Below, in pieces: positions 1 to 64,000 of a DNA stretch of 64,000 nt. The DNA comes from a phage, in NCBI GenBank assembly GCA_011911785.1, contig GCA_011911785.1_4084.1, one strand, 5' to 3'. Below the pieces are notes generated by a model that was not told the DNA's origin, did no database searches, and saw only the letters and a program-made list of their open reading frames with translations. How positions within the stretch are numbered: position 1 is the stretch's first letter; every line of letters starts with the position of its first letter. Position numbers and translations under genes: made by a program.

Positions 1-20
1 GTATACGGCAAAATCTGATA

Positions 21-365
21 ATGGACAAAGATATTATGCAATACGATCAAGAGAACTTACGATTATTGGATAGGCATCTTGCTATTCTTATCGACCTTGT
101 GATGAAAAGTGATGTAAAAATTTTTGAAAGTAGATTTCTTGAGGATTATAAAACACAATTACAAGAACTGTACAAAGGTAAAAAAGTATTACTTAGTACT
201 GGTGACTATGGTAAAATTGAGTACGTGTATTATGAATGGAAAAAGGTTATATATTTTATAAAAACCAAAATAAAATACCAAAATAAAACAAGAACCTATA
301 AAGCATATTACGATTCAAATGAGATAGAGATTATATATGACCAACACGTTAATAACAAAAAGTGA
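21..365 (+). CDS. hypothetical protein
   Basis: 114-aa ORF in a tightly packed co-directional array; no recognisable motif. Confidence 0.4.
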   Translation: MDKDIMQYDQENLRLLDRHLAILIDLVMKSDVKIFESRFLEDYKTQLQELYKGKKVLLSTGDYGKIEYVYYEWKKVIYFIKTKIKYQNKTRTYKAYYDSNEIEIIYDQHVNNKK

Positions 366-660
366 ATTAGATTATTTGAATTATATAAACAGATACTTTC
401 TGATTCTATATAATATACTTCTTGAAGAACAATGCACTAAATCAAACCATCAGTTATATAACTATATTAACTGTATAATTAGTGAAATATATGAATCATT
501 GGAAAAGAGATTTAAGTACAGAACTATTAAGTGCGAAGATGATATTGTATATATTCATGGTGTTTTTGGTACAGGATATGGAATATTCGTTGATTATAAA
601 ATACACCCATTTGATCCGTACATAGAAAATAGTATGTACATAGAAGAGATTGAACTATGA
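337..660 (+). CDS. hypothetical small protein (possible paralog of 657..974)
   Basis: 107-aa ORF; C-terminal 'GTGYGIFVDY' resembles 'GTDYGLMIDC' in the next ORF. Confidence 0.4.
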   Translation: MTNTLITKSELDYLNYINRYFLILYNILLEEQCTKSNHQLYNYINCIISEIYESLEKRFKYRTIKCEDDIVYIHGVFGTGYGIFVDYKIHPFDPYIENSMYIEEIEL

Positions 661-974
661 CACAAGAAGAATATAATAAATTAATAATGTACGAGAATCA
701 TTTTAATTATTGTCTGAAATGGTTATTGTACATTGATAACGTTGAGATGGATATGTACAGAAAAGAGGTGAATAAACGTGTTAAAGATTTCTATTACGAA
801 TTGACTGATCTTTTTTATAATAATGTAGTATATGAAGCAAATACCAGTCGTGATTATGACCTTTATATCAAGCAAATATGGGGTACTGACTACGGTCTGA
901 TGATTGATTGCAGTACTGGTCCTAATATAGACAGACCCAGTACTACATTGTATCTGGATGAGATTTTCATATGA
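657..974 (+). CDS. hypothetical small protein
   Basis: 105-aa ORF, ATGA-type overlap with upstream ORF. Confidence 0.4.
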   Translation: MTQEEYNKLIMYENHFNYCLKWLLYIDNVEMDMYRKEVNKRVKDFYYELTDLFYNNVVYEANTSRDYDLYIKQIWGTDYGLMIDCSTGPNIDRPSTTLYLDEIFI

Positions 975-1273
975 ATGAACTATTACTTTGTCATAAAACA
1001 TACATTATGCTATTCAGAACGTGCCATGATATGCGAATTGAAGGTATACTAGACTACCCAACTATGATGATTAACTTCAGGGTGTTAATGGATTCATATT
1101 CACAATCTGTCATTGATGCATTTGAAGGTAGAGAAATAAAGTTCAAAAATGCCAGGACAAATAATGAGCTATGTGATACAATTAAATCAGTGGGGATTTC
1201 GGTTCCAAATGTGTACGTAATCCCATTGATGTACGGAAAAGTAGTATCCACTAACGAAATTATTAGTATATGA
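971..1273 (+). CDS. hypothetical protein
   Basis: 100-aa ORF, overlapping stop/start with neighbours. Confidence 0.4.
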   Translation: MNELLLCHKTYIMLFRTCHDMRIEGILDYPTMMINFRVLMDSYSQSVIDAFEGREIKFKNARTNNELCDTIKSVGISVPNVYVIPLMYGKVVSTNEIISI

Positions 1274-1569
1274 TTAAAACATTATATGAAGCAGAAGAAA
1301 CATATAAACTTCTGTGGGAAACTTTTATTTTTGACAAATACTATAATAGAACTGAATGGTTAGAGGTAAGTAAAATATATCTTCAAATTTTAAATGATTA
1401 TTTTTGTCCGTTAGTTGCTGAATGTAAAAATAATCCAATTGAAGAAATTAATATAATCGAAATAGTAGATGGGTTTGGTGCGTGGTTGATATACCAAGAC
1501 AACTATCACTTTTCTAATTATATCGAAGATATCGGTAAAATAACTGTAATTAAAGGAGTCATACTATGA
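1270..1569 (+). CDS. hypothetical protein
   Basis: 99-aa ORF in operon-like array. Confidence 0.4.
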   Translation: MIKTLYEAEETYKLLWETFIFDKYYNRTEWLEVSKIYLQILNDYFCPLVAECKNNPIEEINIIEIVDGFGAWLIYQDNYHFSNYIEDIGKITVIKGVIL

Positions 1570-2180
1570 TTTATGCACTATACGTACTATACGTACTTGG
1601 TCTGGTTATTGGTTGGTTTTTGGCAAAATCTTACAACCGTAATGCACTGGCATACACAGTATTTGGTATTATTTTTACGCCAGTACTAGAACTAGGTTTA
1701 CTCATTATTATGGGTCGCCGTGACATGACACCAGTCATTGACGATAATCGTGATAAAGCAGTACATGATGTACCAGTTTTTGAAGGATATACGCCAACTT
1801 TAACAGTTGATGACGTTTACATTGATGGTGCTGAAGAAGTTAAATCAGTTCAGGAAGAAGTTGAAGAAGTTCCAGTAAAAGAAGAACCACAACCAAAAGC
1901 ATCAACAACTAAAACAAAAGCAAAAACTTCTAAGAAAACAAAAGGTCGCAAGACTAGCACTAAAAATACCAAAAAAACCAGTACAACTCGCAAAAGCACT
2001 AAAACTGATAAGGAAGCATCTTCCAGTACTACCAGTACTGATGATGGTACAAGCACTGTTCTACTGACAGCAGCAACAACTGCCGCAATTATCAGTACTT
2101 CATCCTATAGCGACTCATCTTCCTCTTATGACAGTGGCTCTTGTGATAGTTCAAGCTCAAGTTCAGGAAGCTGTGATTAA
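1566..2180 (+). CDS. membrane protein with low-complexity K/T/S-rich tail
   Basis: Two N-terminal hydrophobic segments (LYVLYVLGLVIGWFLA, VFGIIFTPVLELGLLIIMG) followed by a K/T-rich basic stretch and an S-rich acidic C-terminus. Confidence 0.45.
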   Translation: MIYALYVLYVLGLVIGWFLAKSYNRNALAYTVFGIIFTPVLELGLLIIMGRRDMTPVIDDNRDKAVHDVPVFEGYTPTLTVDDVYIDGAEEVKSVQEEVEEVPVKEEPQPKASTTKTKAKTSKKTKGRKTSTKNTKKTSTTRKSTKTDKEASSSTTSTDDGTSTVLLTAATTAAIISTSSYSDSSSSYDSGSCDSSSSSSGSCD

Positions 2181-3747: not shown

Positions 3748-4026
3748 ATGCATGACATGATTGATAGTGCATTAACCGAATTTAACTTTTTTAAAAAATC
3801 ACTCGATACAATAATCAATGATACCAACCAACAAATGAAAGACCATTTAAGTGATAAATTGGTTGGTCGTTGGGTTGAGCTACCATATATAGATGGAACT
3901 ACTGTTGGTGTGATTCATAGAATTGTAACAATTCATGAAGTGAAGGTGTATGTTGAAATTCTGGTTGACAATGAAACTAACAAATGTTTTGTACAATTAA
4001 GCACTGAAGATTTAACTTTTTTATAA
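3748..4026 (+). CDS. hypothetical protein
   Basis: 92-aa ORF. Confidence 0.4.
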   Translation: MHDMIDSALTEFNFFKKSLDTIINDTNQQMKDHLSDKLVGRWVELPYIDGTTVGVIHRIVTIHEVKVYVEILVDNETNKCFVQLSTEDLTFL

Positions 4027-4035
4027 GGATATAAA

Positions 4036-4263
4036 ATGAAAGTAATTTATGTTCAGGTTGAAAAATATCAAACTGAAGATGGTCGCATTTTTGATTCAGC
4101 TAAACAAGCTGAGCATCATGAACGTATTATTTCTGGTGTTCGTCGCATTTGTCCTAAATGTAACGGAACACAACAAGTTCCCGATGAAGAATTTCGTCGC
4201 TATTATGCATGTCCAGATTGTGATGGTAAAGGATATGTAGAAAAACAAGAGGTATGGAAGTGA
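4036..4263 (+). CDS. small zinc-ribbon protein (DnaJ-type CxxCxGxG repeats)
   Basis: CPKCNGTQ ... CPDCDGKG, two CxxCxGxG elements; RBS 'aagga' upstream. Confidence 0.45.
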   Translation: MKVIYVQVEKYQTEDGRIFDSAKQAEHHERIISGVRRICPKCNGTQQVPDEEFRRYYACPDCDGKGYVEKQEVWK

Positions 4264-4673
4264 AACTATATTGCTTAACAAACATGTACTGTCAGGGTGT
4301 TCAGGCTGGCATTCAGGCATTTCATGCTGGTATTAAACTCGTCAAAGATTATGAAGGTTCAGTATTCAGTACTCTAATCGATGAATGGTATAATGAGCAC
4401 GAAACTATTGTAATTCTCAATGCTGGCAACCAAGATAAATTAACCACTCATTACGAGAATCTATCCAAACAGGGCAAGGTTCCATTTGCTAAATTCAATG
4501 AACCAGGTTTGAACGATACCCTCACTAGTGTAGCAGTACTATGCACTGAAGAAATGATTGATGACATGGCACTGATGCGTACTAACGACCCAATGACTGA
4601 TTTACAGCTATGTCACAAATACGGTCATATGTACGAAACACTAAAAGCTATGAGTACAATGAGGACTATTTGA
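4254..4673 (+). CDS. hypothetical protein
   Basis: 139-aa ORF. Confidence 0.4.
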   Translation: MEVKLYCLTNMYCQGVQAGIQAFHAGIKLVKDYEGSVFSTLIDEWYNEHETIVILNAGNQDKLTTHYENLSKQGKVPFAKFNEPGLNDTLTSVAVLCTEEMIDDMALMRTNDPMTDLQLCHKYGHMYETLKAMSTMRTI

Positions 4674-5869
4674 TGAATTTTCCTGAAAAGATTTTCGTCG
4701 CAAGACGTTTTGTTAGTGGGGATCAGGTTGACGGATATATTATCGACGCAACTAAAATGCACACTAAAGCATTTGAAACCAAGAAAGAACGTGTTGAGTA
4801 CTGGGCAAGAACCAATAATATGCCGTCACTTATACTCGACAATGAACCGAAAAAAGGTTTTGCTATTGTTCAAAAATTGATTCACAGTGGGCGTGATACC
4901 TATTTTGTTTGTCGTCACCCAGAAGGATTTGAGTTCAATATCACCGCAAACAATATGCTGGACTTAATCACACACAATGATATCGTTAATGGTGTATTCC
5001 AAGATGCTATGTTCTTTAATAATAATCTTGAACTCATCAATGGTAATACAAAAACATTTGCTAAGATGCAAGAGAAGCAAGAAAAAGCTGAAGAACGTAA
5101 AAGCGTTGTTGGTGAGTTGAAAGTTGGTGATGGATTCCTTTATAACAAAAAAGAGTACTACTATTGTGGTCGAGTTCATGCTCTTTGTTTGAAGAAAACT
5201 AAAGAATTCTCTTTACCTAACAAAAGTTCTTTCTATCATATGGTGTATTGTATCGCTGATGGTACATATGGTGTATGTGCAAGCCTTGACCGTTACGAAT
5301 TAACACCCAGAGCACTCCATAACGTTAAAACGACAATGGAAGCTGAAATTGTTAAAGCAAATGCGTATTTCAATACGTACCGAATGCGAACTGAGAACGC
5401 ATTAGGTGAATGCAATAGACCAGTACTGATCAGTACTAAATCATTTAAAAGTACTGATATGAAAGTAAAATACACTGAAATCACTAAAGACGTTCTTGTT
5501 AATGGTCGTTTCAATGAAAACGTATTATTCATGACTGAACAGAATGGTCAAAAATATCGTGTATTCTTTGGTATTTCAGATAACAACAGCAGAAATTCCT
5601 ATGGATATTATCGCCATGATTATTCTATAGCGTACAAGGGTGATTTTGAAAAATACTGCGGATACCCAGTGGAAGTTGATGCGAATGGTGTAATGTCAAT
5701 GGATGTTGATATCGATAAACATACATCTTTCAATACATGGCGTGGTTATAATTCACCTTTCTATCCACCGACCAAACGATATAGTAATAATTCATCAGAA
5801 TCTAATAAAAAAACTATGGTTCATATTAGCACTGACTGTCCTATTTTTTATGGAACCTATTATCTATAA
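4673..5869 (+). CDS. hypothetical protein
   Basis: Start moved to in-frame ATG at 4673, which forms an ATGA overlap with the upstream stop; no motif recognised. Confidence 0.45.
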   Translation: MNFPEKIFVARRFVSGDQVDGYIIDATKMHTKAFETKKERVEYWARTNNMPSLILDNEPKKGFAIVQKLIHSGRDTYFVCRHPEGFEFNITANNMLDLITHNDIVNGVFQDAMFFNNNLELINGNTKTFAKMQEKQEKAEERKSVVGELKVGDGFLYNKKEYYYCGRVHALCLKKTKEFSLPNKSSFYHMVYCIADGTYGVCASLDRYELTPRALHNVKTTMEAEIVKANAYFNTYRMRTENALGECNRPVLISTKSFKSTDMKVKYTEITKDVLVNGRFNENVLFMTEQNGQKYRVFFGISDNNSRNSYGYYRHDYSIAYKGDFEKYCGYPVEVDANGVMSMDVDIDKHTSFNTWRGYNSPFYPPTKRYSNNSSESNKKTMVHISTDCPIFYGTYYL

Positions 5870-5878
5870 GGGAATATA

Positions 5879-7297
5879 ATGAGCATTTTAGCAATTCTGG
5901 AACAAATCAAAAAGACTTCAAGTACACTTGGTAAGAAAGCAATCCTTGAAGAAAACAAAAACAATGAAACACTCAAAAAAGTACTGAAATATACGCTAGA
6001 CCCTACTATCGTAAGTGGCTATAAGAAGCTACCAGACGCTGCTGACGTGTATCAACATATGACGTTAGATGAAGCTATTGATAAGCTAGAATGCATCTAT
6101 AAGCGTGGTGTGACGGGTAATACGGGGCGTGATTTCATTGCTTCAGTACTGGGTTCCGTATCTGAAGATGATCAGGAAGTTCTCCGTAAAATGCTCACGA
6201 AGAACCTTGATTGTGGTATTCAGGAAAAGAACTGTAATGATGTATTCGGTAAAGGCTTTATTAAAGATGAACCTTATATGCGTTGTTCATTGATTGACAA
6301 GAAAACTGCTAAGAACATCAACTTCAAAGATTATGGTTATGCCGTTGCTGAAGTTAAGATGGATGGTCAGTACTTGAACCACGTTGTTATCAATGCATCA
6401 TTAACATCCACTTCCCGTAATGGTAAGATTTATGACTTCCTCGGTTGTCGTGATGCTGAAATGGCTGGACTTGCTCATCATATTCAAAGTACAGATGAAC
6501 GTTTCAGTAGTGGTGTAGTCTTTATGGGCGAGGGTTTAGTACTGGATACTGATGGGGAAACTATTCTTCCACGTACAACTGGTAACGGCATCATTCAGAA
6601 AGCAGGTAAAGATACTATCACCCAAAACGAAGCAATGCGTACAGTATTCGTTCTCTGGGATGTAGTGCCATATGATGCTTATTGTGCTGGTATCTGGGAT
6701 GTGAAACGTAAGGAACGTCGCGAGATTCTTGAAGGTGCAATCAATGCATTAGGTAGTGAATTCGTGCGTATGGTTGGATATCGTAAGGTGAAGGATCTCA
6801 AAGAAGCCTTTGCTTACAACTCTGAACTCATGAGTTCAGGTGAAGAAGGTTCAGTACTGAAATGTGAAGATGGTATCTGGAAATCTCATACTTCTCCTAA
6901 GCAGTTGAAAATGAAATTGAAAATGCAACTGGACTTGCGTATTGTTGGTTTCAATGAAGGTGAAGGTAAGCGTAAAGGTATGCTTGGTTCTTTACAACTG
7001 GAAAGTGCTTGTGGTACACTAAAAGTAAGCGTAGGAACAGGCATTAAAGAGAAAGATGCTGAATGGACATTTAAAACCATTTGGGAAAGAATGCAAGAAC
7101 TCATTGGTAAAGTTGTTACAATTGAGTGCAATGACGTAGTATATGATAAGCGTACTGGTGAACCGTCACTATTCTTACCAGTGTTTATTGAATTTAGATT
7201 TGACAAAAACACTTGTGACGATTATACTCGTATCTTAGAAATTCGCGATAGTGCAGTTGAGGTCTTCTCAAACAGTATTATTGAATCACTTGGCTAA
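5879..7297 (+). CDS. lig: ATP-dependent DNA ligase (T4 gp30-like)
   Basis: KxDG adenylation motif (EVKMDGQ), EGLVLD, EGSVLK, DLRIVGF; N-terminus MSILAILEQIKK..AILEENKNNE matches my recollection of T4 DNA ligase. Confidence 0.9.
   Translation: MSILAILEQIKKTSSTLGKKAILEENKNNETLKKVLKYTLDPTIVSGYKKLPDAADVYQHMTLDEAIDKLECIYKRGVTGNTGRDFIASVLGSVSEDDQEVLRKMLTKNLDCGIQEKNCNDVFGKGFIKDEPYMRCSLIDKKTAKNINFKDYGYAVAEVKMDGQYLNHVVINASLTSTSRNGKIYDFLGCRDAEMAGLAHHIQSTDERFSSGVVFMGEGLVLDTDGETILPRTTGNGIIQKAGKDTITQNEAMRTVFVLWDVVPYDAYCAGIWDVKRKERREILEGAINALGSEFVRMVGYRKVKDLKEAFAYNSELMSSGEEGSVLKCEDGIWKSHTSPKQLKMKLKMQLDLRIVGFNEGEGKRKGMLGSLQLESACGTLKVSVGTGIKEKDAEWTFKTIWERMQELIGKVVTIECNDVVYDKRTGEPSLFLPVFIEFRFDKNTCDDYTRILEIRDSAVEVFSNSIIESLG
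6850..6861. repeat. 12-bp palindrome TTCAGTACTGAA
   Basis: Exact 12-mer, inside the ligase CDS; same word at 40883, 42123, 59188 and within 62365..62378. Confidence 0.6.
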
Positions 7298-7316
7298 ACA
7301 TTTATTGGAGGTAATT

Positions 7317-8108
7317 ATGAAATTTGTCGTAACATCTGATGTGCACGGTGGCACTGATTACCTCCACAGTGGTGATTACAGTGATACAGTACTGATCATT
7401 GCAGGGGATTTCGATGAAGTTAAACGCAGCCGTTATCGTACTGGTATCGAATCACTGTGTAAGCAGTTCAAGAATGTAGTACTGGTTCCTGGCAACCACG
7501 AGTACTACGGTTCGAACATTTACAAAACGCATCAAGTACTGTCCGATATGCAAGATGAGTTTCCTAATTTCATCTTTTTGCAAAACAAATTTGTATGGCT
7601 GGATGGTGTTTTGCTCGTTGGTAGTACTCTGTGGACAGACTTTGACAAAGGTAATTCCATGACGAAGTTTGATGCTCGTCAGAAGATGAACGATTACAAA
7701 CACATCCGTCATGGAACAACATCCGAGCCTTGGCGTAAGAAACTGACACCAGAAGATACTGAGTTCATGCATCACAAAGATAAACAATTTATCAAAAATT
7801 CAGTTGACACAGTACGCTTAATGCAGGATAATGATTTCAAGGTCATCGTGATTACCCATCACGCACCGAGTTTTCAAAGTGTTTCACCAAAATATAAAAA
7901 CGATTCACTGAATGGTTGTTACTGTTCAGACATGGATCAGTACATTGAAGATTTGGGTGCTGATGTTTGGATTCATGGTCATGTTCATAGTAGCTTTGAT
8001 TACCACATCGGTAAGACACGTATCATTTGTAATCCAAGAGGTTACGAATCTTATAGTGGAGCTTGTGAGAATTTCGATTACAATCCTAAATTGGTATTCG
8101 AAATCTAA
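7317..8108 (+). CDS. calcineurin-like metallophosphoesterase
   Basis: Motifs TSDVHGG, GDFDE, GNHEYY, ITHHAP, HGHVHS; start set to ATG 7317 preceded by 'ggag'. Confidence 0.7.
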   Translation: MKFVVTSDVHGGTDYLHSGDYSDTVLIIAGDFDEVKRSRYRTGIESLCKQFKNVVLVPGNHEYYGSNIYKTHQVLSDMQDEFPNFIFLQNKFVWLDGVLLVGSTLWTDFDKGNSMTKFDARQKMNDYKHIRHGTTSEPWRKKLTPEDTEFMHHKDKQFIKNSVDTVRLMQDNDFKVIVITHHAPSFQSVSPKYKNDSLNGCYCSDMDQYIEDLGADVWIHGHVHSSFDYHIGKTRIICNPRGYESYSGACENFDYNPKLVFEI

Positions 8109-8117
8109 GGGATTACT

Positions 8118-8513
8118 ATGATATATACATTGCATACAAAAGACAAAATGATCGTAATCAATGGAAGTACTCGTATGTTCCAAAGATATGGTATGCGTCT
8201 GGTGACATATTGTGATAAAGTTCAATTCTATGATGATAAGAAAGGAATCAACTCAGTACTGAAAGATAGGTATCACTATAGTCGTGATATCCAGAGAGCA
8301 GATGATTTGGATTCTTTTAGTGGTAAAGTGTACGTTGTTGTTTGTGATGATAGTAAAGGTGATGTGTTACCTTTCAGTACTTTTGCATGTAATATGTTCT
8401 TTAGAAATGAACTCCCTGATTCATTAAGAATGATTGAGGTTGATTTTGATACCATACCATGTGGAATTCGTTTAGAATTTCTTAACGCACTGGTATCAAT
8501 TAGGGAGTACTGA
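8118..8513 (+). CDS. hypothetical protein
   Basis: 131-aa ORF. Confidence 0.4.
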   Translation: MIYTLHTKDKMIVINGSTRMFQRYGMRLVTYCDKVQFYDDKKGINSVLKDRYHYSRDIQRADDLDSFSGKVYVVVCDDSKGDVLPFSTFACNMFFRNELPDSLRMIEVDFDTIPCGIRLEFLNALVSIREY

Positions 8514-8896
8514 TGAAAATTATTACTGTGTACACAATTGTATATAATAACGAAATCAAGTACGTGTTAAATGCAAACTTACACCACACTAGAGGTGAAA
8601 CAAAGTTACAACAGAACAGTACAGAAATCTCTCACTACTGGCTGGATGATGATTCAGTTGAAGTGTATATTGATGGTCGTGCTGAATACTATGATGCAGT
8701 TTTCTTTGAAGATTTAGATAAATCGAACGAATTCTTCATTTATGTCAGTACTGACCAATATTATACGCATTCTTTGTTTGACATTACCAACACTTCTGTG
8801 TATGATACAGGTATGGTTAGGTTACTGAAGATAGACCCAACTCTGTACAACAAAGAAACAATTTACGGTTTACTAGATTTTACAAGAAAATTGTAG
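8513..8896 (+). CDS. hypothetical protein
   Basis: 127-aa ORF. Confidence 0.4.
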   Translation: MKIITVYTIVYNNEIKYVLNANLHHTRGETKLQQNSTEISHYWLDDDSVEVYIDGRAEYYDAVFFEDLDKSNEFFIYVSTDQYYTHSLFDITNTSVYDTGMVRLLKIDPTLYNKETIYGLLDFTRKL

Positions 8897-8921
8897 ACAA
8901 ATACGAACACTGTGATATAAT
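8894..8921 (+). promoter_or_regulatory. sigma70-like promoter (TAGACA-16 nt-TATAAT)
   Basis: -35-like TAGACA at 8894..8899 and perfect -10 TATAAT at 8916..8921, about 35 nt upstream of the clpP-like start. Confidence 0.4.
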
Positions 8922-8956
8922 ACTCACATCAATGAAACAATAGAGGAAAATATACA

Positions 8957-9652
8957 ATGACTCAACAATTTATGTTTGGTGGTTATGCGAATGGTGAAAC
9001 AACTAACATTTCAATTCCATATGTAGTTGAAAAAGTTAATGGCAACGAACGTACTTATGATCTAGCATCTCGTATGATGCAAGACCGTATCATTTTCCTT
9101 GATACTGATTTCAACGACCAGATGGCACATATCATCAAGCAACAATTGGTGTGGTTGGATTCTCAAGGTTCTGAACCAATTACTCTTTATATTTCCTCGC
9201 CGGGTGGTAGTGTTCATGCAGGTTTGGGTATTTCTGATATTGCTAAATCTTGTGTATCACCAATCCGCACAGTAGTGATGGGTTATGCAGCATCAATGGG
9301 TTGCTACACACAATCAGTAGTGGGTACTAAAGGTTATCGTCTTGGTGGTAAACGCTCGTACTTTATGTGTCACCAAGTAAGTTCTGGTACACAAGGTCTG
9401 ATCACTGATCAGAAAATTGCACTAAAACACTCTGATGCATTGAACACATTGCTGACGAAAGAAATCGCTGAAGCTGTAGGTGTTTCTCATGAAAAACTAC
9501 TAGAAGATGCGGACCGCGATTTGTGGTTGAGTGCAGATGAAGCACTTGAGTATGGTGAACTTGGATTTATCGATGGTATTATCCTTGGTCCACGTAATGA
9601 AAAAGGTCAATACCTAGTTAAACGTCGCGGTGGCGTGGAAGAGTGGGTATAA
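8957..9652 (+). CDS. clpP: ClpP-family serine protease
   Basis: ISSPGGSVHAGLGISD and MGYAASMG match ClpP signatures (INSPGG / GQAASMG), followed by a His-containing HQVSSG segment. Confidence 0.75.
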   Translation: MTQQFMFGGYANGETTNISIPYVVEKVNGNERTYDLASRMMQDRIIFLDTDFNDQMAHIIKQQLVWLDSQGSEPITLYISSPGGSVHAGLGISDIAKSCVSPIRTVVMGYAASMGCYTQSVVGTKGYRLGGKRSYFMCHQVSSGTQGLITDQKIALKHSDALNTLLTKEIAEAVGVSHEKLLEDADRDLWLSADEALEYGELGFIDGIILGPRNEKGQYLVKRRGGVEEWV

Positions 9653-9681
9653 TTCAGTACTAAAAACTTAAAATATATTAT

Positions 9682-9704
9682 GCCTCACTATGTGGGGCAT
9701 TTTC
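9682..9704 (+). terminator. rho-independent terminator
   Basis: Hairpin gcctcac-tat-gtggggc followed by attttc; shares a 15-nt core (cctcactatgtgggg) with the terminator at 60744. Confidence 0.55.
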
Positions 9705-9716
9705 TAAGGAGTTAAA

Positions 9717-10010
9717 ATGTCAAAGAAACTTGTACGAAACTCTAGCACTGAAGAAGTTGAAATTCTTGATGATTCGGAATTCATCAGTACTGCACTAGAG
9801 CAGATCAGTACTCAAGCGTTAGCACTAAAAGACATTAATGAATCAGAAGACCTACTGGTTGGTATGGCTGAAATTCTTGAATTGATGCAAGAAGTTCTTA
9901 TGAAGAACAATATTAAACCAATTGATGCAGTGCAATATGCTGCAAATTTGCGAGCCGAACACGGTTCATTCAACGAGAAAAAAGCTGTCAGCACAGAAGA
10001 TAAGGAATAA
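9717..10010 (+). CDS. hypothetical acidic protein
   Basis: 97-aa ORF with 'aagga' RBS. Confidence 0.4.
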   Translation: MSKKLVRNSSTEEVEILDDSEFISTALEQISTQALALKDINESEDLLVGMAEILELMQEVLMKNNIKPIDAVQYAANLRAEHGSFNEKKAVSTEDKE

Positions 10011-10014
10011 TACA

Positions 10015-10461
10015 ATGGCTAATGAACAACACAAAGAAGGTTATGACGCGTTTAAAAACAAAGTAGTTTTTAACAATGAACAGCTAAAATCACAGCACCC
10101 ACTATTCCGTCAAGGCTATCGTGCTGCACAAGCTGACGCAATGAAGAAAAACAATGTAACCTTCCCAACTACATTGTTTGATATTCCTAAACGTCCTGAA
10201 GTGTTTAAGGCTGATTGGACTGATATTATGGCAGCAACTAAACGACCACGTTTTGCAAAACTACATACCGACGAAGGTAAATGGCTGCTAATGGGTATCA
10301 TGAAAGCTGTTGAAAAACGTGCACATACTATTGTCCGTTATCGTGATGTTGTTACTATGGTAGATGAAGCATTTGATATTGTACTTCAGTACGGCTACGA
10401 TGAAGGTGTATTAACTGTTGAAGATTGTCAACAATATAACTATACACCGACCGAAAAGTGA
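10015..10461 (+). CDS. hypothetical protein
   Basis: Start set to ATG 10015 (MANEQHKEG) with 'aagga' RBS, immediately after the upstream stop. Confidence 0.4.
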   Translation: MANEQHKEGYDAFKNKVVFNNEQLKSQHPLFRQGYRAAQADAMKKNNVTFPTTLFDIPKRPEVFKADWTDIMAATKRPRFAKLHTDEGKWLLMGIMKAVEKRAHTIVRYRDVVTMVDEAFDIVLQYGYDEGVLTVEDCQQYNYTPTEK

Positions 10462-10510
10462 TTAAATAAATGGGAGTCATTGTACTCCCTTTTCGCATAG
10501 GTAAATTTAT

Positions 10511-10864
10511 ATGAGTAAAGTTTACATTTCTGTTGATATGGATTATTCATCTGATCCTATATGGACTTCTAAAACAGGAGACTATTGGATTAATGATGAT
10601 CTTGATGGATACAAAAAACTTTTTAGTGCAGGTTTAATGCATAGCTTGTATGTTTACCAGCAAATTTGGGAGGCATCCAATTGGAGTTCATATCTGTCAC
10701 CATCGGATATGATAAATGTGGAAGCACCTGGGATGTTTATGATCCAACAAGCATCACATATATTAAGTCAAGCTTGTGCAGTACAAATAAAGAAGGAGTT
10801 TCCTGACTGGCACGTCTTTTATTGGTGCGACGCAAGTAACACTAGGAAGGAGGTAATACTTTAA
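10511..10864 (+). CDS. hypothetical protein
   Basis: 117-aa ORF. Confidence 0.4.
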   Translation: MSKVYISVDMDYSSDPIWTSKTGDYWINDDLDGYKKLFSAGLMHSLYVYQQIWEASNWSSYLSPSDMINVEAPGMFMIQQASHILSQACAVQIKKEFPDWHVFYWCDASNTRKEVIL

Positions 10865-11373
10865 TGATCTTTAAAATCACTAAAGAAAGCAGTATTGAGT
10901 TCTCAAAAAATATGTTTTTAATAAATGAGTACGCAAAAAATATCAGTACTGAAGCAATAGAAATAACCAAGAAATGGTACGATAATTATTTGAATACAAG
11001 AAAATGGTATCATAAAATTAATGATTACCAGTGGTTTCTTACTACTATAACTGAGGGAGATGGACTAGTATTAAGATATAATTGTATGAATTTTAATTAC
11101 ATTGGACTTGATTTCAATTCAACAATTGTTGGTATGGATATTAAAAAAATTAGAAAATTAACATCAATCAATACTAAGGAAATATATGAAGAATCGGGTA
11201 AAGTTTGGGAAGCTGTAACATTTATGATTAAGCACTCGTCATTTATGTATAGAAATTATGATATTAGTATGGATTTACAAGGTCGTAATATCCCATATAC
11301 TTTAGATGAAAAACAATATCATCACATGAAAATGTGTGAAGAGATGGTTGAATCTTTAAAATTAAAGGAGTGA
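10864..11373 (+). CDS. hypothetical protein
   Basis: 169-aa ORF. Confidence 0.4.
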   Translation: MIFKITKESSIEFSKNMFLINEYAKNISTEAIEITKKWYDNYLNTRKWYHKINDYQWFLTTITEGDGLVLRYNCMNFNYIGLDFNSTIVGMDIKKIRKLTSINTKEIYEESGKVWEAVTFMIKHSSFMYRNYDISMDLQGRNIPYTLDEKQYHHMKMCEEMVESLKLKE

Positions 11374-11374
11374 T

Positions 11375-17283: not shown

Positions 17284-17295
17284 AATAGTTTTACC

Positions 17296-50790: not shown

Positions 50791-53066
50791 ATAATAACAA
50801 ATTTCTTGAACAAACAATTGTGAAGCACTTAGCAGGTTCACAAGCGTATGGAACCAGTACACCTGAAAGTGATACGGATTATCGTGGTATTTTTCTTGCT
50901 AACAAAGAATTTATCCTTACACCTTTTTATAATGTCAAGGAAGTTTCTGATAAAAAAGAAGAAGATACTAAATTCTATGAACTAAATCAGTACTTAAGAC
51001 TATACACAGAGGCTAACCCAAATATCCTTGAATCACTATGGGTTGATCCTGAACACATCGTAGAAAGTACTGAAATCTATGATTATCTACGTACATTCAA
51101 TCAACAATTACTTAGTTCTAAGATTGCATTCTCTTATACCGGTTATGCATATAATCAGGTTAAACGTATGTCCAATCACCACGGGTGGATGGATAAAGAG
51201 CGTATTGCTGAAAAACGTCTAAATGAAATCTTAGAAGATTTTCCAGTAGATGAAACTTTAGCATGGATGTATGAAAACTTCCCACACTATTTGGTAGAAC
51301 GTTTAGATACTTCTAAACTACATCCATTTAATGCTAAGAAAATAGATTTTGAAAAATACATGCGTGATACTTCATTGCAGTTAGTTTCGACTCATCCGTT
51401 GAAACAGTATCATTTTGTACGTTTAGTACATAATTACAGTACTGATAAAGTACTAGACCGTGATTTCAACTTATTGGATTATAACAATGGGTACGAATTA
51501 ATTCATTACGGTGAAAATATCTTTGGTGTTATTATCAATCCTAATGAAAGTACAATTAACGCTGATGGTTCTTTACGTTATTTCAACAAAGAACGCAGTA
51601 CTGAAGAATTGAAAGTACGACCTGAACTCATTGTCAAATTCAATGAAAAAGAATACAGTGAGAACAGTGAGAACCGTAAAAGTTATCACAAATGGAAAGA
51701 GAATCGTAATGCTAAACGTGCAATTCTTGAATCCAAACACGGCTATGACTGTTATAGTTTTGATACTGAATTCTTAACTAAAGATGGTTGGAAATTGTTT
51801 GATGATATCACTGAAAATGATCTATTAGCAACATTTGATAAAAATCACAAAATAGAATATCAGAAATATACTGAACGTTTTGATAATTTATATAATGGCA
51901 ACCTATATCACTTCACTGGTTATCACCAAGATACTTTAGTGACTGCTAACCATCGAATGTATGTTAAGGATTATGCACGTAATCAGAAAAAAGATATGTC
52001 TGATTGGAAATTTGTGGAAGCTGCACAATTAAAAGAAACATATAAAATTTTGAATACATTATCCCCAATAACAAACGAATACCAAGATAAAAAAAGTCCA
52101 TTTGACTACATGGATATCAAAGTTTATCTTCAACTTATGGGATGGTTTATTTCAGATGGTAGTATAAGTTTCAGAGATGGTAAAGTAAAATCATTATATA
52201 TTTCCCAATCAAAAGCAAGTCCAGGTATGCGTTGTGCTTTAACAAAATACAAACAATCTGGTCAATTGGTTTTCCATGAATACATTGTAGAAAAGAAAGA
52301 TTATCAAGCGAATGATGAATCAAGATTTACATTCCCACGTGAAGTGGCTGAAGCATTATATAATGATTGTGGACATGGTTCATATAATAAACGAATTCCA
52401 AATTGGGTATTTGATTTAACAAAACGCAAAATGGATTTTCTACTGAAAGGTTTGTTACAAGGTGATGGTACAAAACGCAATTTAGTTAATGATAATGATA
52501 CATATGTATATTATACTGCGAATTCATTATTAGCAGATGATGTTCAAAAACTAGCATTACTGTGCGGGTATGAAACATCAAAATGGGGGCCGTACACAAA
52601 CGAGACTAATTTTGGACGTGTTGATATGTATCAAATTCATATCAACATGAAACCGAAATCCGAAAAAATGAACATGAAACAAAATCTTGAAAAAATTCCA
52701 GTTACTAATTACAGAACTGTTTGTTTTTCTGTTCCCAACGGCACACTCGTTACTCGTAGAAATGGTAAAATAGCATTACATGGAAACTGCAAACATGCTA
52801 TGCATACGATCAGACTTTTGAATACAGCCGAAGAAGCATTACAAAGCGGTATTATCCTCGTGAAACGTCCTGATGCTGATATGCTAATGGATATTCGCAA
52901 CGGTAAATGGAAATATGAAGAAGTCATGGATTATTTCAATGAAAAGGTTGACTATATTCGTAATGTAGTGTATCCTAAGTCAGTACTACCAAAGAAACCA
53001 GATATTGCATTAGCAGCGAAAGTACTTTTAGATATTCGTGAAATGCAATGGTATAGTTCAAAATAA
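50787..53066 (+). CDS. Pol-beta-superfamily nucleotidyltransferase-domain protein interrupted by a putative intein
   Basis: N-terminal NTase signature GS-x10-DTD (HLAGSQAYGTSTPESDTDYRG); central ~346-aa insertion with intein-like blocks. Confidence 0.55.
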   Translation: MNNNKFLEQTIVKHLAGSQAYGTSTPESDTDYRGIFLANKEFILTPFYNVKEVSDKKEEDTKFYELNQYLRLYTEANPNILESLWVDPEHIVESTEIYDYLRTFNQQLLSSKIAFSYTGYAYNQVKRMSNHHGWMDKERIAEKRLNEILEDFPVDETLAWMYENFPHYLVERLDTSKLHPFNAKKIDFEKYMRDTSLQLVSTHPLKQYHFVRLVHNYSTDKVLDRDFNLLDYNNGYELIHYGENIFGVIINPNESTINADGSLRYFNKERSTEELKVRPELIVKFNEKEYSENSENRKSYHKWKENRNAKRAILESKHGYDCYSFDTEFLTKDGWKLFDDITENDLLATFDKNHKIEYQKYTERFDNLYNGNLYHFTGYHQDTLVTANHRMYVKDYARNQKKDMSDWKFVEAAQLKETYKILNTLSPITNEYQDKKSPFDYMDIKVYLQLMGWFISDGSISFRDGKVKSLYISQSKASPGMRCALTKYKQSGQLVFHEYIVEKKDYQANDESRFTFPREVAEALYNDCGHGSYNKRIPNWVFDLTKRKMDFLLKGLLQGDGTKRNLVNDNDTYVYYTANSLLADDVQKLALLCGYETSKWGPYTNETNFGRVDMYQIHINMKPKSEKMNMKQNLEKIPVTNYRTVCFSVPNGTLVTRRNGKIALHGNCKHAMHTIRLLNTAEEALQSGIILVKRPDADMLMDIRNGKWKYEEVMDYFNEKVDYIRNVVYPKSVLPKKPDIALAAKVLLDIREMQWYSSK
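51750..52787 (+). mobile_element. putative intein with LAGLIDADG-type homing endonuclease domain
   Basis: Block A CYSFDTEFLT, block B TANH, two LAGLIDADG-like motifs (LMGWFISDGSIS, LLKGLLQGDGTK), C-terminal NGKIALHGN followed by Cys; in frame with the host ORF. Confidence 0.5.
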
Positions 53067-53078
53067 GAGGATATTGAT

Positions 53079-53504
53079 ATGCTGAATTCAAACATTGTTG
53101 AAGCTCTTCGTGTACTGAACCGTGAAGTTAGCCGTATCCATAAAAGTACTGATCGTTATAAAGTAATGCATGAAATTAAACTAGAATTAGAAGCTATCAA
53201 TAAGGGTGAATGGTTCCTTGAACCAGAATACCGTACACGTGGACCAACTGACGTTGAGAAAGCAATTGCAAAATTCATTTCTGGACGTTATGGTGATGTA
53301 TCAGAGGCAGATGTACTGATGAATTTACATTTAACCTCCTTAGAAATTGAAGATAAATTCAAATTTGATTCACTGGACTGGGTAGAAATGATCATGGAAC
53401 TTGAAGATGAATTTAAGGTTGAGATCGAAGATAAGTATGAATCAGGTGATACCAGAATCGTGCATCTCGTTGAACATGTACAAACAATGATCGATAAACG
53501 CTAA
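53079..53504 (+). CDS. hypothetical acidic protein
   Basis: 141-aa ORF. Confidence 0.4.
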   Translation: MLNSNIVEALRVLNREVSRIHKSTDRYKVMHEIKLELEAINKGEWFLEPEYRTRGPTDVEKAIAKFISGRYGDVSEADVLMNLHLTSLEIEDKFKFDSLDWVEMIMELEDEFKVEIEDKYESGDTRIVHLVEHVQTMIDKR

Positions 53505-54236: not shown

Positions 54237-54848
54237 ATGTCTAAATATCATGTTTATTATGTAACCAAATTGAGTTTACTAGATGAACTCAATCATACTA
54301 GTACCAAAATGAAACGTTATACTTATAATGGTATTACTTTCAGATACTTTCCACAAAAAGTACTAACATTCGTTAAGAATTGTAAGTGCGTTGCTTGTGG
54401 CATCGAGGCTACAGAAGTTCGAATCGAACGTTCCAACTGTAGTGATCCGGTATATGGTAAACCGCATTTAAATGTGTATGCAGTATGTGGTCTTTATGAA
54501 GTTATGATGACTGTAGATCATAATCATCTTGCATCTAAAGGTGGTGCTGATTTGGAGTCAAACTTTAATACAATGTGTGCGAGATGTAATCAGTTGCGTT
54601 CAAATAAAACTGAAACGGTTGATGAATTCCTTGAGAAAGTCAAAAACCGAAATCTACTTGAAGAACATATGAATCGTTATTTCAATAAGATTGAGAAGGA
54701 AAGTAAACGTCCTACACCAGAAATGCTCGAAGAACGTAGATTGCGTCAAGAGCTATGGGATAACGATCATCTGTGGCATGTTCGTGAGTACGGGCGACAC
54801 ATGAAAGCATTAAAAAAGGCACAAAAGCTGTTGGATAAACATGAGTAA
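54237..54848 (+). CDS. HNH homing endonuclease
   Basis: HNH core VDHNHLASKGGADLESNFNTMCARCNQLRSN with upstream Cys pairs. Confidence 0.7.
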   Translation: MSKYHVYYVTKLSLLDELNHTSTKMKRYTYNGITFRYFPQKVLTFVKNCKCVACGIEATEVRIERSNCSDPVYGKPHLNVYAVCGLYEVMMTVDHNHLASKGGADLESNFNTMCARCNQLRSNKTETVDEFLEKVKNRNLLEEHMNRYFNKIEKESKRPTPEMLEERRLRQELWDNDHLWHVREYGRHMKALKKAQKLLDKHE

Positions 54849-54901: not shown

Positions 54902-55258
54902 ATGAAATCAAAAATCTTTTTACCACAGTTAATGTGGCATCTTGCAGAGTTAGATGAAGATGATGTGTATACTGACTATGGTACATGGGATGACAGTACT
55001 GAAACCTTTGGTCCAGATGTGCAGTACAAAATCATTTACAATGAAAGTAAAGGGCATAGACGATTTACTGAAGAATTTGATCTTGTTTTTCTTGACATGA
55101 ACGAGAACAAGTATTATCATTGTACGTATGAACGAGGTTTAACAGAATATCGACCACAACGACCATTCGAGTATGAAACGGATGGTGTTAAGTGCAATGA
55201 AGTTTCTGTTACCAGAGAAGAAATTATCACTTATAGAACTTTGTGGAAATATGTGTAA
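54902..55258 (+). CDS. hypothetical protein
   Basis: 118-aa ORF. Confidence 0.4.
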   Translation: MKSKIFLPQLMWHLAELDEDDVYTDYGTWDDSTETFGPDVQYKIIYNESKGHRRFTEEFDLVFLDMNENKYYHCTYERGLTEYRPQRPFEYETDGVKCNEVSVTREEIITYRTLWKYV

Positions 55259-55656
55259 TGCTTAAAGATTTAGATTTTTCAAACTTAGAAATTGTTAGTG
55301 CTGTGAAAAATATCTCTGACATGGGAGACGAAAAGACAGTACTGTTAACTATTACATTTGTCAAAGAAGAAGATAGTTATTTACATCTTACAGGTATTGA
55401 AGAACTAATTCATAAAACTAATCTACAAGATAATGGGAAGTTTATTAAGCTTCAGGCTTCCTATACGAAAAAAACGTCAAATTTTGTAGACCTAAATAGT
55501 GTAGTCAAGGTGGTATTCAATCACCCTGAACAAAAGTACAGAAATGTGTCACGTAATGAGACAGATGCCAGTACTCTACAGCTTCTTCAGGATATTGAGT
55601 TCATTGAAACAGTATTTGAACGAAGCAGCAAAGAATTGAAAAAAGTTTATATGTAA
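55258..55656 (+). CDS. hypothetical protein
   Basis: Start set to ATG 55258 (TAATG overlap); the track start at 55243 is a GTG. Confidence 0.4.
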   Translation: MLKDLDFSNLEIVSAVKNISDMGDEKTVLLTITFVKEEDSYLHLTGIEELIHKTNLQDNGKFIKLQASYTKKTSNFVDLNSVVKVVFNHPEQKYRNVSRNETDASTLQLLQDIEFIETVFERSSKELKKVYM

Positions 55657-56804: not shown

Positions 56805-57266
56805 ATGACTCCCTGGAGAGATTTTATGGAAAATATTAACGACTTGCGACATGTTATGGACTTCATTGGCTGTACTGAAGAAGACAGTGCTTATGATGAA
56901 GTACTATTGACATTTATTGAAAACAGCATTATACTACCAGCAATTGCACATAGCTGGCATTTACAAAGTAAACACTACACAAAACATCTACAATTAGATG
57001 AGTTGTATAAAGAGTTACCAGAATATGTCGATGCGTTCATTGAAGGCATTATGAACACTCGTGGTGCTTTACAAATTGGTACTGGACACAGTTATAAGTT
57101 CACACCAATTGAACAGTGTATTCCTATTCTTGAAGAATACTGTGAACAATGTAAGTACGTTCATGCTATGCTTGAAGAAGCTGAAGACTATGGCAGTACT
57201 AATACCCTTGAAGATATAATGAGTTTCATTGAGGGTACTTTATATAAACTTAAGTATCTTGAATAA
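56805..57266 (+). CDS. hypothetical protein
   Basis: 153-aa ORF. Confidence 0.4.
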   Translation: MTPWRDFMENINDLRHVMDFIGCTEEDSAYDEVLLTFIENSIILPAIAHSWHLQSKHYTKHLQLDELYKELPEYVDAFIEGIMNTRGALQIGTGHSYKFTPIEQCIPILEEYCEQCKYVHAMLEEAEDYGSTNTLEDIMSFIEGTLYKLKYLE

Positions 57267-62470: not shown

Positions 62471-63397
62471 TTGACAATAGCGATACAAACACCTAAAACT
62501 AAGACAGCTATAGGCTTATTAGTTTCACTTGTTATCATCGCTGCGTTTGGATTTTATGGTTTTTCTCAACATGATCGTGCATCATCATCGGGCGAAAGTC
62601 AGGTGCACAATTTAAAACCGCAAGTTACACAAATTCAAAAGCAGGAATTACCTAAAGGGTATACACCTAAAGTAGTTCCAGGCAGCGAGAAACATTATAC
62701 TGTTGAATACGGTGATAGTTATCATTCGATAGCTAAGAAGTTTAAACCGCATAATGTGTTGTTTGAAGATTACGTTACAGTATTGAAGAATATCAATCTT
62801 AATGCTAAACTTCATACATCGCAGGGTATCTTTATCCCAACAAAAGAGGATTTGAAAGACGTACTGTTACCTGATGTGGTAGTACTTTTCGATTATAATG
62901 ATCCTGAAATAGTAGCACACATCAAAGAAGCTGAAGGTTCAATTGAATTTCAGTCCAAGAACAAAAGACGTTTACTTGGGGGAAAAGTTGGAGTTCCTTT
63001 CTACAATTCAAAATTTCATCCTTATAAGGATATGAAAGGTAATTATACAATAGGTTATGGACATTACTTAGGTAAGAACGAATCTGATGCAATTAAGTAC
63101 AGAAACGGTATTACCAAAGCACAAGCACATAAACTATTACTTCAAGATTTGAAAAGGACATATAATGACTTTACAACTCTAATGAAGAAAAAAAATGCAG
63201 TAAATCTTACAAAAGACCAACAACGTATTCTCTTTGACATGGCTTACACGATGGGTGTTGATAAGTTGGCCTCATTTAATAAACTATGGAGAAGTGCTGA
63301 AGCTGAAAATCATAAGAAGTTTAAAAGAGAAATCAAAAATTCCTTATGGTATAGGCAAGTAACAAACAGAGCGGATACTTTGTTAAGCTCAATCTAA
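62471..63397 (+). CDS. membrane-anchored LysM-domain lysozyme (T4-lysozyme-like)
   Basis: N-terminal TM helix, LysM-like HYTVEYGDSYHSIAKKF, C-terminal YTIGYGHYL and SLWYRQVTNRADTL resembling T4 lysozyme; apparent TTG start 5 nt after aaaggagg. Confidence 0.75.
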   Translation: MTIAIQTPKTKTAIGLLVSLVIIAAFGFYGFSQHDRASSSGESQVHNLKPQVTQIQKQELPKGYTPKVVPGSEKHYTVEYGDSYHSIAKKFKPHNVLFEDYVTVLKNINLNAKLHTSQGIFIPTKEDLKDVLLPDVVVLFDYNDPEIVAHIKEAEGSIEFQSKNKRRLLGGKVGVPFYNSKFHPYKDMKGNYTIGYGHYLGKNESDAIKYRNGITKAQAHKLLLQDLKRTYNDFTTLMKKKNAVNLTKDQQRILFDMAYTMGVDKLASFNKLWRSAEAENHKKFKREIKNSLWYRQVTNRADTLLSSI

Positions 63398-63411
63398 AAG
63401 GAAGGTGAAGT

Positions 63412-63744
63412 ATGCTAAATCTAGTTATTCAAGGTAATGTTGATATTACTCCAGCAATCCATGACGCAATTCATCAAGAAGCAAACACTCTAAATAAATT
63501 TAGTGATTCTTCAGTACTGAATATTGGTGTTCATGTGAAAAAAGAGCATAAGACACAGTACGCAGTAACTTTAACATCAGGTGGTAAGTCTGTTACTGCC
63601 GATGATGCAGATTTATACAAGGCGATTGTCGATTCATTCGAAAAAATGGAAACTGTATTCAGTAAAGACAAAAGCATTAAATTGCACCGCCGAAACCATC
63701 CAGACCGTCCAGTTGTAGTTGATGTAACTGACGAAGAAGAGTAA
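63412..63744 (+). CDS. hpf: ribosome hibernation / translation inhibitor factor (HPF/RaiA family)
   Basis: VDITPAIHDAI ... TLTSGGKSVTADDADLYKAIVDSFEKME and acidic C-terminus match my recollection of E. coli RaiA/HPF (ITPAI, HEDMYTAI). Confidence 0.8.
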   Translation: MLNLVIQGNVDITPAIHDAIHQEANTLNKFSDSSVLNIGVHVKKEHKTQYAVTLTSGGKSVTADDADLYKAIVDSFEKMETVFSKDKSIKLHRRNHPDRPVVVDVTDEEE

Positions 63745-63753
63745 TATAATAAA

Positions 63754-63781
63754 GGGACAGATTGATTCTGTCCCTTTTCTT
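63754..63781 (+). terminator. rho-independent terminator
   Basis: Hairpin gggacag-attgatt-ctgtccc followed by a T-tract. Confidence 0.65.
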
Positions 63782-63795
63782 ATGGAGTTTTAATT

Positions 63796-64000
63796 ATGAA
63801 TTATGCTTGGATGGAAATTGTAAAATCTCTCGTATCAACACATGATGTTGATTTACCAGATAGTCTAGTATTTAATAGATGGTACTATCCATATCCAGAG
63901 GACCGTAGGGTTGGAATTGGATTTTTTATTAATGATAAATCTAATTTGATTGGATTAATTGAAGATATGAAATCCAACGCAGTATCAATCTCTATTGAGT
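63796..64000 (+). CDS. hypothetical protein (3' end beyond window)
   Basis: ATG 63796 after a ggag RBS; ORF runs to the window edge. Confidence 0.3.
   Translation, partial: MNYAWMEIVKSLVSTHDVDLPDSLVFNRWYYPYPEDRRVGIGFFINDKSNLIGLIEDMKSNAVSISIE

Follow-up and report, generated by a model that had tools for sequence, protein, structure and literature searches.

Why does a phage genome accumulate a palindrome of the very kind that phages, the textbook case of palindrome avoidance, normally purge? The question is raised by a stretch of phage DNA of 64,000 nucleotides (NCBI GenBank assembly GCA_011911785.1, contig GCA_011911785.1_4084.1; this whole stretch is called the window throughout), in which the hexamer AGTACT is scattered at a density far above chance. 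An original prediction, made from the letters alone, had proposed that the motif is over-represented along the entire window and serves a function at the level of DNA. The answer we favour, tentatively, is that AGTACT is such a selected signal, namely the recognition site of a phage-encoded, two-fold-symmetric protein that acts on double-stranded DNA and is specific to the Rak2-like clade of jumbo phages.

At 98% identity, the window matches the Asteriusvirus Escherichia phage A4; it belongs to an approximately 350-kb jumbo coliphage of the type called "Rak2-like" or group 2.2. The Rak2-like clade is considered a remote side branch of the T4 relatives (PMC11780129), and the phage is not T4-like in the usual sense.

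Over-representation of AGTACT in the window

The window holds 156 copies of AGTACT, about one per 410 bp, where one per few kb had been predicted by rough estimate. Dinucleotide shuffles yield 18.9 ± 4.5 copies (maximum 30), and base composition alone (order 0) gives 21.7. Third-order Markov simulation, a model that itself already takes up much of the signal, yields 59.3 ± 7.6 copies with a maximum of 78, which is still well below the observed count. The ten positions named for the first 2.7 kb are all correct, and the "about 10" copies between 30.1 and 32.5 kb amount to nine. Over-representation rises stepwise outward from the GTAC centre, as the following word counts of the window reveal.

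GTAC: 456 observed, 204 expected
AGTAC: 244 observed, 69 expected
AGTACT: 156 observed, 22 expected
CAGTACTG: 44 observed, 0.7 expected
TTCAGTACTGAA: 6 observed, 0.01 expected

The fold excess is approximately 7 for AGTACT (7.1 to 7.6 across the window and the complete genome of the Asteriusvirus TH47) and approximately 55 to 75 for CAGTACTG. AGTACT is the sole strongly enriched 6-bp palindrome in the window. The sites and their extended forms are located as follows.

1-64000: dispersed AGTACT, 156 copies, 145 of them in coding sequences (CDSs) in all three phases and 11 in non-coding DNA
911-63519: extended core CAGTACTG, 44 copies; first bases, first half, at 911, 2033, 2658, 5421, 6144, 6852, 7387, 8254, 8746, 9785, 10944, 14848, 16839, 17952, 30146, 30272, 30668, 31093, 31768, 31953, 33789, 33836
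Extended core CAGTACTG, first bases, second half, at 34622, 34713, 35625, 37418, 37607, 38594, 40238, 40885, 42125, 42224, 45058, 45600, 49446, 51437, 51596, 54994, 55337, 58199, 59190, 60575, 62368, 63512
6850-6861: 12-bp palindrome TTCAGTACTGAA
40883-40894: 12-bp palindrome TTCAGTACTGAA
42123-42134: 12-bp palindrome TTCAGTACTGAA
59188-59199: 12-bp palindrome TTCAGTACTGAA
63510-63521: 12-bp palindrome TTCAGTACTGAA
62365-62378: 14-bp palindrome TTTCAGTACTGAAA in non-coding DNA, containing a further copy of TTCAGTACTGAA at 62366

The recurrence of the longer palindromes had been noticed before, correctly so for TTCAGTACTGAA at 6850, 40883, 42123 and 59188 and for TTTCAGTACTGAAA at 62365; the copy at 63510 had been overlooked, and TTCAGTACTGAA occurs six times in total. 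Spacing of AGTACT is near Poisson, with 6 to 17 copies per 4 kb and only a mild excess at distances of 15 to 30 bp. Clustering and helical phasing of the sites were discarded on these grounds.

Palindromes containing GC behave in the opposite way. About 25 such hexamers (e.g., CAGCTG, CTGCAG, GGTACC, GGATCC) occur at or near zero in the window and in TH47, and the tetramer GCGC is absent from the 350 kb of TH47 against 331 copies expected. This purge indicates that the phage relies heavily on restriction-site avoidance and that its DNA is largely unmodified.

Independence from coding

Half of the coding copies of AGTACT spell Ser-Thr (AGT-ACT), and many other palindromes are avoided by the genome, so that codon usage, one repeated peptide or the avoidance of other words might produce the excess as a by-product. 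We called 91 open reading frames, covering 93% of the window. Their 145 copies compare with 38.9 ± 5.7 after protein-preserving shuffles of synonymous codons, and with 24.0 ± 4.7 after shuffles of codon order. Broken down by codon phase, 77, 25 and 43 copies are observed against 23.5, 4.8 and 10.4 expected from the synonymous shuffles, and each of the three phases lies above the maximum of these shuffles. Non-coding DNA carries 11 copies against 1.5 expected and hence the same approximately 7-fold excess as coding DNA. Furthermore, sites occur in genes on both strands and in many unrelated genes, and their flanks contain no repeat element. Since all phases and non-coding DNA are enriched, the excess is not a dipeptide or codon-usage effect, as the original prediction had argued from the same spread over phases, gene strands and intergenic DNA; the codon-shuffle and Markov comparisons it had proposed as checks both came out above simulation. 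The by-product explanation is already refuted, and we assign it practically no weight.

The influence apparently runs the other way, the DNA motif having shaped protein sequences. Ser-Thr dipeptides number 174 in the window, 1.5 times the 113 expected from amino-acid composition, and 44% of them are written AGT-ACT, compared to 13% expected from codon usage.

No preference for intergenic DNA was found in the window: 7% of the AGTACT copies lie in the 7% of the DNA that is non-coding, and gene boundaries are not preferred either. A promoter, terminator or operator element was rejected for this reason, as the sites show no fixed position relative to genes and are spaced near Poisson.

Site context and symmetry

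The preferred context reads T-rich, then C or A but not G, then AGTACT, then G or T but not C, then A-rich. Extraction of the flanks, a check suggested beforehand, thus gave an extended consensus, whose information is symmetric and limited to ±4 bp. Within the flanks it resides at positions -1 and +1 only (C and G favoured, respectively, and G at -1 disfavoured), apart from the weak T-rich/A-rich symmetry. G precedes the motif at 19 of the 156 window sites, and its frequency ranges from 5 to 12%. As flank information is confined to -1/+1, the copies of AGTACT do not constitute a dispersed repeat element; a repeat element or miniature inverted-repeat transposable element was dismissed because the flanks lack conservation.

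The two halves of the motif are coupled. CAGTA followed by A, G or T occurs at 0.96 to 1.33 of expectation, CAGTAC at 7.5; enrichment therefore depends on the palindromic GTAC centre. In the bulk of the genome AGTAC is followed by T in 64 to 86% of cases, and the non-palindromic half-sites show no strand bias outside one block described below. The compact symmetric footprint is that of dimeric recognition and not that of a repeat element or promoter.

Distribution among related phages

The original prediction had asked for the same enrichment in related phage genomes, and it is present in every Rak2-like genus sampled, at 7- to 10-fold. Observed and expected counts of AGTACT, or the fold excess, are as follows.

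A4: 96 against 11.3 in 33 kb, and 86 against 11.1 in 32.5 kb
PBECO4: 102 against 14.7
GAP32 (Cronobacter): 115 against 14.6
fHe-Yen9-04 (Yersinia): 65 against 7.7
XaC1 (Xanthomonas): 80 against 7.9
CBB (Pectobacterium): 59 against 7.3
Hallingskeid (Erwinia): 65 against 6.2
TH47, whole Asteriusvirus genome, 350 kb: 909 against 120; CAGTACTG 203 against 3.7
Metagenomic relatives, marker protein 31-50% identical to the query: 7- to 9-fold
More distant jumbo phages, marker protein 26-29% identical: 0.2- to 1.2-fold
RAY (Erwinia, Agricanvirus): 2.3-fold
PA5oct, sister jumbo phage (100-122 kb): 0 against 7.5
T4 (100-125 kb): 3 against 8.5; GTAC 37 against 83

In the TH47 genome CAGTACTG is the top over-represented 8-mer. 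The hosts of the enriched phages belong to Escherichia, Cronobacter, Pectobacterium, Yersinia, Erwinia and Xanthomonas, while no excess was found in the sampled regions of T4, PA5oct or phiKZ-like phages. A 50-kb sample of E. coli K-12 contains 3 copies against 11.6 expected, the phage having about 120 in the same length. Enrichment in the Rak2-like clade hence runs against the local trend, AGTACT being under-represented in PA5oct, in T4 and in the host sample.

The constancy of the motif across six host genera is most simply explained if its reader is encoded by the phage and not by the host. A host protein deserved consideration nevertheless. The nucleoid-occlusion factor SlmA, which reportedly spreads outward along DNA from its binding sites, recognizes GTGAGTACTCAC, a consensus with AGTACT as its six central bases; LexA and TrpR have similar half-sites. 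However, G at -1, which SlmA requires, is disfavoured in the phage: in the 350 kb of TH47, GAGTACTC occurs 3 times, with 3.7 expected, and the complete SlmA site not once. Moreover, phages of Xanthomonas, Yersinia, Erwinia and Escherichia all have the motif in the same form, which speaks against any single host factor. With flanks that do not fit and a motif that is independent of the host, the look-alikes SlmA, LexA and TrpR were set aside; the host-factor explanation is close to refuted and very improbable.

Three side observations concern the genomes compared. Firstly, two IMG/VR contigs (53% GC, marker protein 29% identical) contain 27 copies of TTCGAA and 21 of ATCGAT against 4.8 expected in either case; given this excess in another jumbo-phage lineage, iterated palindromes may not be confined to the Rak2-like clade. 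Secondly, the window differs from A4 in two places, which look like mosaic exchange of host-range modules:

15630-26995, minus strand: 11.4-kb segment of large, probably tail-fibre-like genes without counterpart in A4, the closest relative; 21 AGTACT (1.8 per kb), still an approximately 5-fold excess
51751-53100: second difference; A4 has approximately 3.6 kb more near 52-53 kb

The breakpoints are too few to be related to AGTACT positions. Thirdly, the Chi word GCTGGTGG occurs 23 times in the TH47 genome against about 2 expected, 17 of these on the sense strand, and not at all in the window. The excess may stem from codon choice (GCT-GGT-GG) or be real.

Constraint on individual sites

The window and PBECO4 are 78% identical where aligned. 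AGTACT is kept at 39 of 75 sites (52%), compared to 27.9% of all hexamers. Among codons of conserved amino acids whose third base falls within AGTACT, 83 of 102 are identical, where 61.7 are predicted from the same codons outside the sites. Purifying constraint thus acts on the sites at the DNA level, in good agreement with the selection proposed originally. Turnover occurs nevertheless: between the two genomes, losses number 36 sites and gains 22. Both the density of AGTACT and its individual sites are thus maintained.

A functionless motif could leave part of this pattern as well. Neutral molecular drive, by biased mismatch repair or gene conversion, has been proposed for HIP1, the iterated palindrome of cyanobacteria, in the form of the very-short-patch hypothesis, and the phenomenon described here resembles HIP1. 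Such a drive would conserve sites, act in all phases and in non-coding DNA, and peak where recombination is frequent, as in terminal repeats. Very-short-patch repair in E. coli, on the other hand, leaves as its clearest mark a depletion of the donor word. Neither in the window nor in the whole TH47 genome is any one-mismatch neighbour of AGTACT depleted: the deamination product AGTATT/AATACT stands at 1.1 and 1.29 of expectation, respectively, and all other neighbours, AGGACT excepted, at 1.1 or above, which argues against a repair drive of this type. Neutral drive also fails to explain the shift in amino-acid choice and the AGTACT-free block with its 16-fold enriched polar variant (see next section). 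We therefore consider it rather improbable.

Terminal repeats and a strand-polar block

Two further regularities lie outside the window. The first is a gradient in density toward the genome ends. In CBB the annotated terminal repeat of 22.5 kb (1-22456) carries 6.4 AGTACT per kb, and AGTAC is followed by T in 86% of cases. In TH47 a zone at 88-112 kb reaches 6 to 7 per kb; it matches the first ~7-24 kb of the G17 record and has its counterpart in A4 at 17-25 kb. For G17, terminal redundancies of about 20 kb are reported (PMC6563267). In two genera, peak density, at 6 to 7 per kb or about 20 times chance, is thus found in or beside long terminal repeats. Beside the repeat there is also a 4-5 kb stretch of tiny genes (TH47 82.6-87.6 kb; A4 about 25-29 kb) without AGTACT and with GTAC at background, which may have been acquired recently or be subject to a different constraint.

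The second regularity is a block of 7-8 kb with sharp edges in Asteriusvirus genomes, from which AGTACT is missing while GTAC is still enriched 3.5-fold:

A4 (ON286972), about 31-39 kb: polar block
TH47 (MT446416), 71.8-80.2 kb: polar block
ECO103 4-12-1, 3915-12201 of the stretch examined: polar block

On the plus strand of the TH47 block we counted 48 TGTACT and a single AGTACA; the sense strand accordingly reads (TTC)AGTACA. Within the block this AGTACA variant is enriched 16-fold, while about 9 copies would be expected in the opposite orientation. About 18 genes carry it, with copies in each of the three codon phases, and non-coding DNA does so too; a peptide motif or coding constraint was discounted as its cause for this reason. 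The TH47 record is flagged 'UNVERIFIED', but the same block in the independent assembly of ECO103 4-12-1 and in A4 excludes an assembly artefact. About 20 small genes, restricted to Asteriusviruses, make up the block; no Pfam matches were obtained for them, and their PHROGs are exclusively of unknown function. In records that include both terminal repeats, the block lies approximately 31-33 kb from the physical genome end. No such block was detected in the first 50 kb of CBB or elsewhere in TH47. In comparison with oriented genomic words, the bulk signal is palindromic, and a single block is 48:1 polar. The block implies that selection can act on each half-site by itself and that some process tells their orientations apart.

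It is here that the main competitor of a symmetric reader draws its arguments. A DNA-tracking enzyme might read the oriented half-site 5'-(C)AGTAC-3' as its unit along one strand, and the palindrome would then be an economical means of providing this unit on both. Such a half-site could be a Chi-like signal for a helicase-nuclease entering at ends or breaks, or a primase site of T4/T7 type (GTA(C)); primase recognition uses GTC in T7 and GTT in T4, and the Chi word of E. coli is likewise over-represented irrespective of reading frame. In favour of this view, 48-54 copies in one orientation stand in the block against almost none in the other, in all phases; density is greatest in the terminal repeats, where nucleases that enter at ends and the replication of ends come into play; and a 6-mer without enrichment, at about one per 6 kb per strand, would be too sparse for priming or protection, which would give a reason for the enrichment. 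However, in the bulk of the genome AGTAC is completed to the palindrome much more often than if sites had arisen independently on the two strands, and no strand bias of half-sites accompanies it. In the block the base following AGTAC is specifically A (48 of 54) and not merely any base other than T. The primase version leaves avoidance of the opposite orientation unexplained, as a helicase-bound primase never sees the leading-strand template. In sum, an oriented half-site accounts well for the block but poorly for the coupled halves of the bulk genome, and we regard it as an unlikely unit of selection.

DNA modification and the putative reader

A 6-bp unspaced palindrome is the typical site format of type II methyltransferases and endonucleases, and the original prediction had listed modification and nicking among the possible functions. 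AGTACT could thus be the target of an M.ScaI-like N4-cytosine methylase, of a GTAC adenine methylase, or of virion nicking, the mark itself being useful. Two or three DNA methyltransferases are encoded by these phages, and about 900 ScaI/Eco255I-type sites tolerated in a palindrome-purged genome may need protection. The evidence from relatives points elsewhere. In a nanopore screen of native versus amplified DNA, Hallingskeid, the one of the two phages in which the motif was counted and is enriched, showed shifts at GATC and CCWGG only; the relative Kaldavass showed an additional shift at TGCAT; and a nick motif was listed for neither (PMC11780129). Close relatives of the PF01555 methylase from GAP32 and Yen9-04 are limited to about 18 phage records, and a GAP32-type N4/N6 methylase was dropped as determinant of the motif, as it is not clade-wide. 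Finally, modification alone leaves the enrichment, the terminal-repeat gradient and the polar block unexplained. Modification and virion nicking are accordingly disfavoured, and we judge them clearly improbable.

Among the functions suggested originally, the site of a dimeric phage DNA protein therefore remains the best fit: the compact symmetric 8-bp footprint, the independence from the host and the constraint site by site are all as expected of a phage-encoded protein with two-fold symmetry, and we infer that such a protein reads AGTACT. The counts themselves establish the enrichment, its independence from coding and from the host, the constraint on single sites, the terminal-repeat gradient and the polar block. 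The process that uses the motif is a matter of speculation. The reader would be a two-fold-symmetric binder of double-stranded DNA or a tightly controlled nickase, to which each half-site (C)AGTAC would contribute separately. About 900 copies per genome would mark phage DNA about 40 times more densely than the 50-kb E. coli sample, and such dense marking could steer a phage process toward phage DNA. From the terminal-repeat maximum and the polar block, this process may be tied to the genome ends and sense orientation; recombination-dependent replication or concatemer formation, end protection, and DNA handling at entry or packaging are candidates.

One gene of the window was considered as a source of the reader:

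54237-54848, plus strand: HNH endonuclease gene, weak candidate reader; syntenic in Asteriusvirus, RaK2, 7t3, Yen9-04, XaC1 and Hallingskeid

It is only a weak candidate because no homologue was detectable in the motif-rich phages GAP32 and CBB; with this imperfect phyletic match it was not accepted as determinant of the motif. Just downstream of the syntenic spanin-HNH cluster (53.5-54.8 kb), conserved DUF5856 and DUF7325 proteins are encoded (56805-57266 and 55258-55656, respectively). Homologues of DUF5856 in relatives are labelled inconsistently, either as 'structural protein' or as 'starvation-inducible transcriptional regulator'.

Several points weigh against a dimeric, phage-encoded reader. 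No reader protein was identified, the HNH endonuclease being the sole nuclease candidate examined. Classical dimeric regulators usually have longer, spaced sites, the short unspaced format being more typical of restriction and modification enzymes. A double-strand cutter acting freely would be fatal to the phage: with only 3 sites in the K-12 sample, it would hit phage DNA about 40 times more often than host DNA. Modification, in turn, was not seen in a relative. Turnover of sites would explain the graded enrichment of partial sites just as well, and the terminal-repeat maximum could stem from weak protein constraint on small early genes. The polar block, in addition, is genus-specific and may belong to a separate system.

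A bolder version of the symmetric reader, possible but doubtful, would treat the approximately 900 copies as a dense sequence 'self-code', read half-site by half-site and sensitive to orientation. Full palindromes, most frequent in the terminal repeats, would license symmetric action, and the AGTACA block would impose polarity, e.g., unidirectional initiation, a barrier or protection. Rak2-like phages apparently lack bulk base modification, and they have no nucleus-like shell, as reported for Sharanji (PMC11895373).

Comparison with known systems

The closest analogue of AGTACT appears to be HIP1 (GCGATCGC), with Chi, uptake sequences and the EcoP15I sites of T7 as partial ones. HIP1 occurs roughly once per kb, and its function has been unsettled for decades. 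Both are short unspaced palindromes, over-represented many-fold, present in all coding frames and spread clade-wide. An excess above 10-fold throughout the genome is likewise found for CAGTACTG in the window and in TH47, and the absence of information past ±4 bp places the sites of all frames and of non-coding DNA outside any longer repeat. Methylation and depletion of a donor word have been linked with HIP1; AGTACT, in contrast, shows no depleted donor word and no cognate methylation, the latter as seen via the motif-rich relative Hallingskeid only. It is furthermore a different, AT-rich sequence carried by a virus and not by a cell, and neither a density gradient toward terminal repeats nor a strand-polar variant block is known for HIP1.

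Chi, KOPS and DNA uptake sequences share the genome-wide, frame-independent excess of an 8-mer and the character of a 'self' mark, and they depend on orientation, as the Asteriusvirus block does. These words are asymmetric and skewed between replichores, whereas the bulk signal of AGTACT is a true palindrome with coupled halves; as the word is the same across hosts, its reader, unlike that of Chi-type words, would have to be phage-encoded. The ScaI/Eco255I type II sites are identical to AGTACT in their six bases and have the same compact two-fold symmetry. Phages normally purge such sites, yet AGTACT is 7-fold enriched next to about 25 other palindromes that are purged; neither a cognate enzyme pair nor, in Hallingskeid, AGTACT methylation was found.

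In T7 the EcoP15I sites occur in a single orientation, as the AGTACA block does, which abolishes any outcome that needs two opposed half-sites. The T7 strand bias reflects the need of type III enzymes for inversely oriented sites and serves escape from a host enzyme. However, the T7 sites are not enriched, while the AGTACA variant is, and the latter is confined to 7-8 kb. SlmA sites, lastly, share the AGTACT centre, but their required GTG...CAC flanks are disfavoured in the phage.

Novelty and significance

In the literature searched we found no report of an enrichment of AGTACT or CAGTACTG, and the searched passages of the genome papers on Sharanji, G17, CBB and RaK2 and of a comparative overview of jumbo phages do not mention it. 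The original prediction had not recognised the feature as one described for T4-like genomes. As to novelty this stands; the genome, however, is that of an Asteriusvirus, a distant relative of T4, and in T4 itself the motif is under-represented.

AGTACT is kept at a cost to synonymous sites and amino-acid choice, which implies a strong and so far unrecognised function at the DNA level in a large group of jumbo phages. Its excess provides a simple signature for spotting the Rak2-like clade in metagenomes, and predicts that these phages are either extremely sensitive to restriction of the ScaI/Eco255I type or in some way protected against it. Finding the reader is experimentally tractable. The phage system could also be an easier model than cyanobacterial HIP1 for studying why genomes accumulate iterated palindromes. 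If the 'self-code' version were true, AGTACT would represent a new kind of signal in viral genome architecture, a functional counterpart to Chi or HIP1 that is open to experiment.

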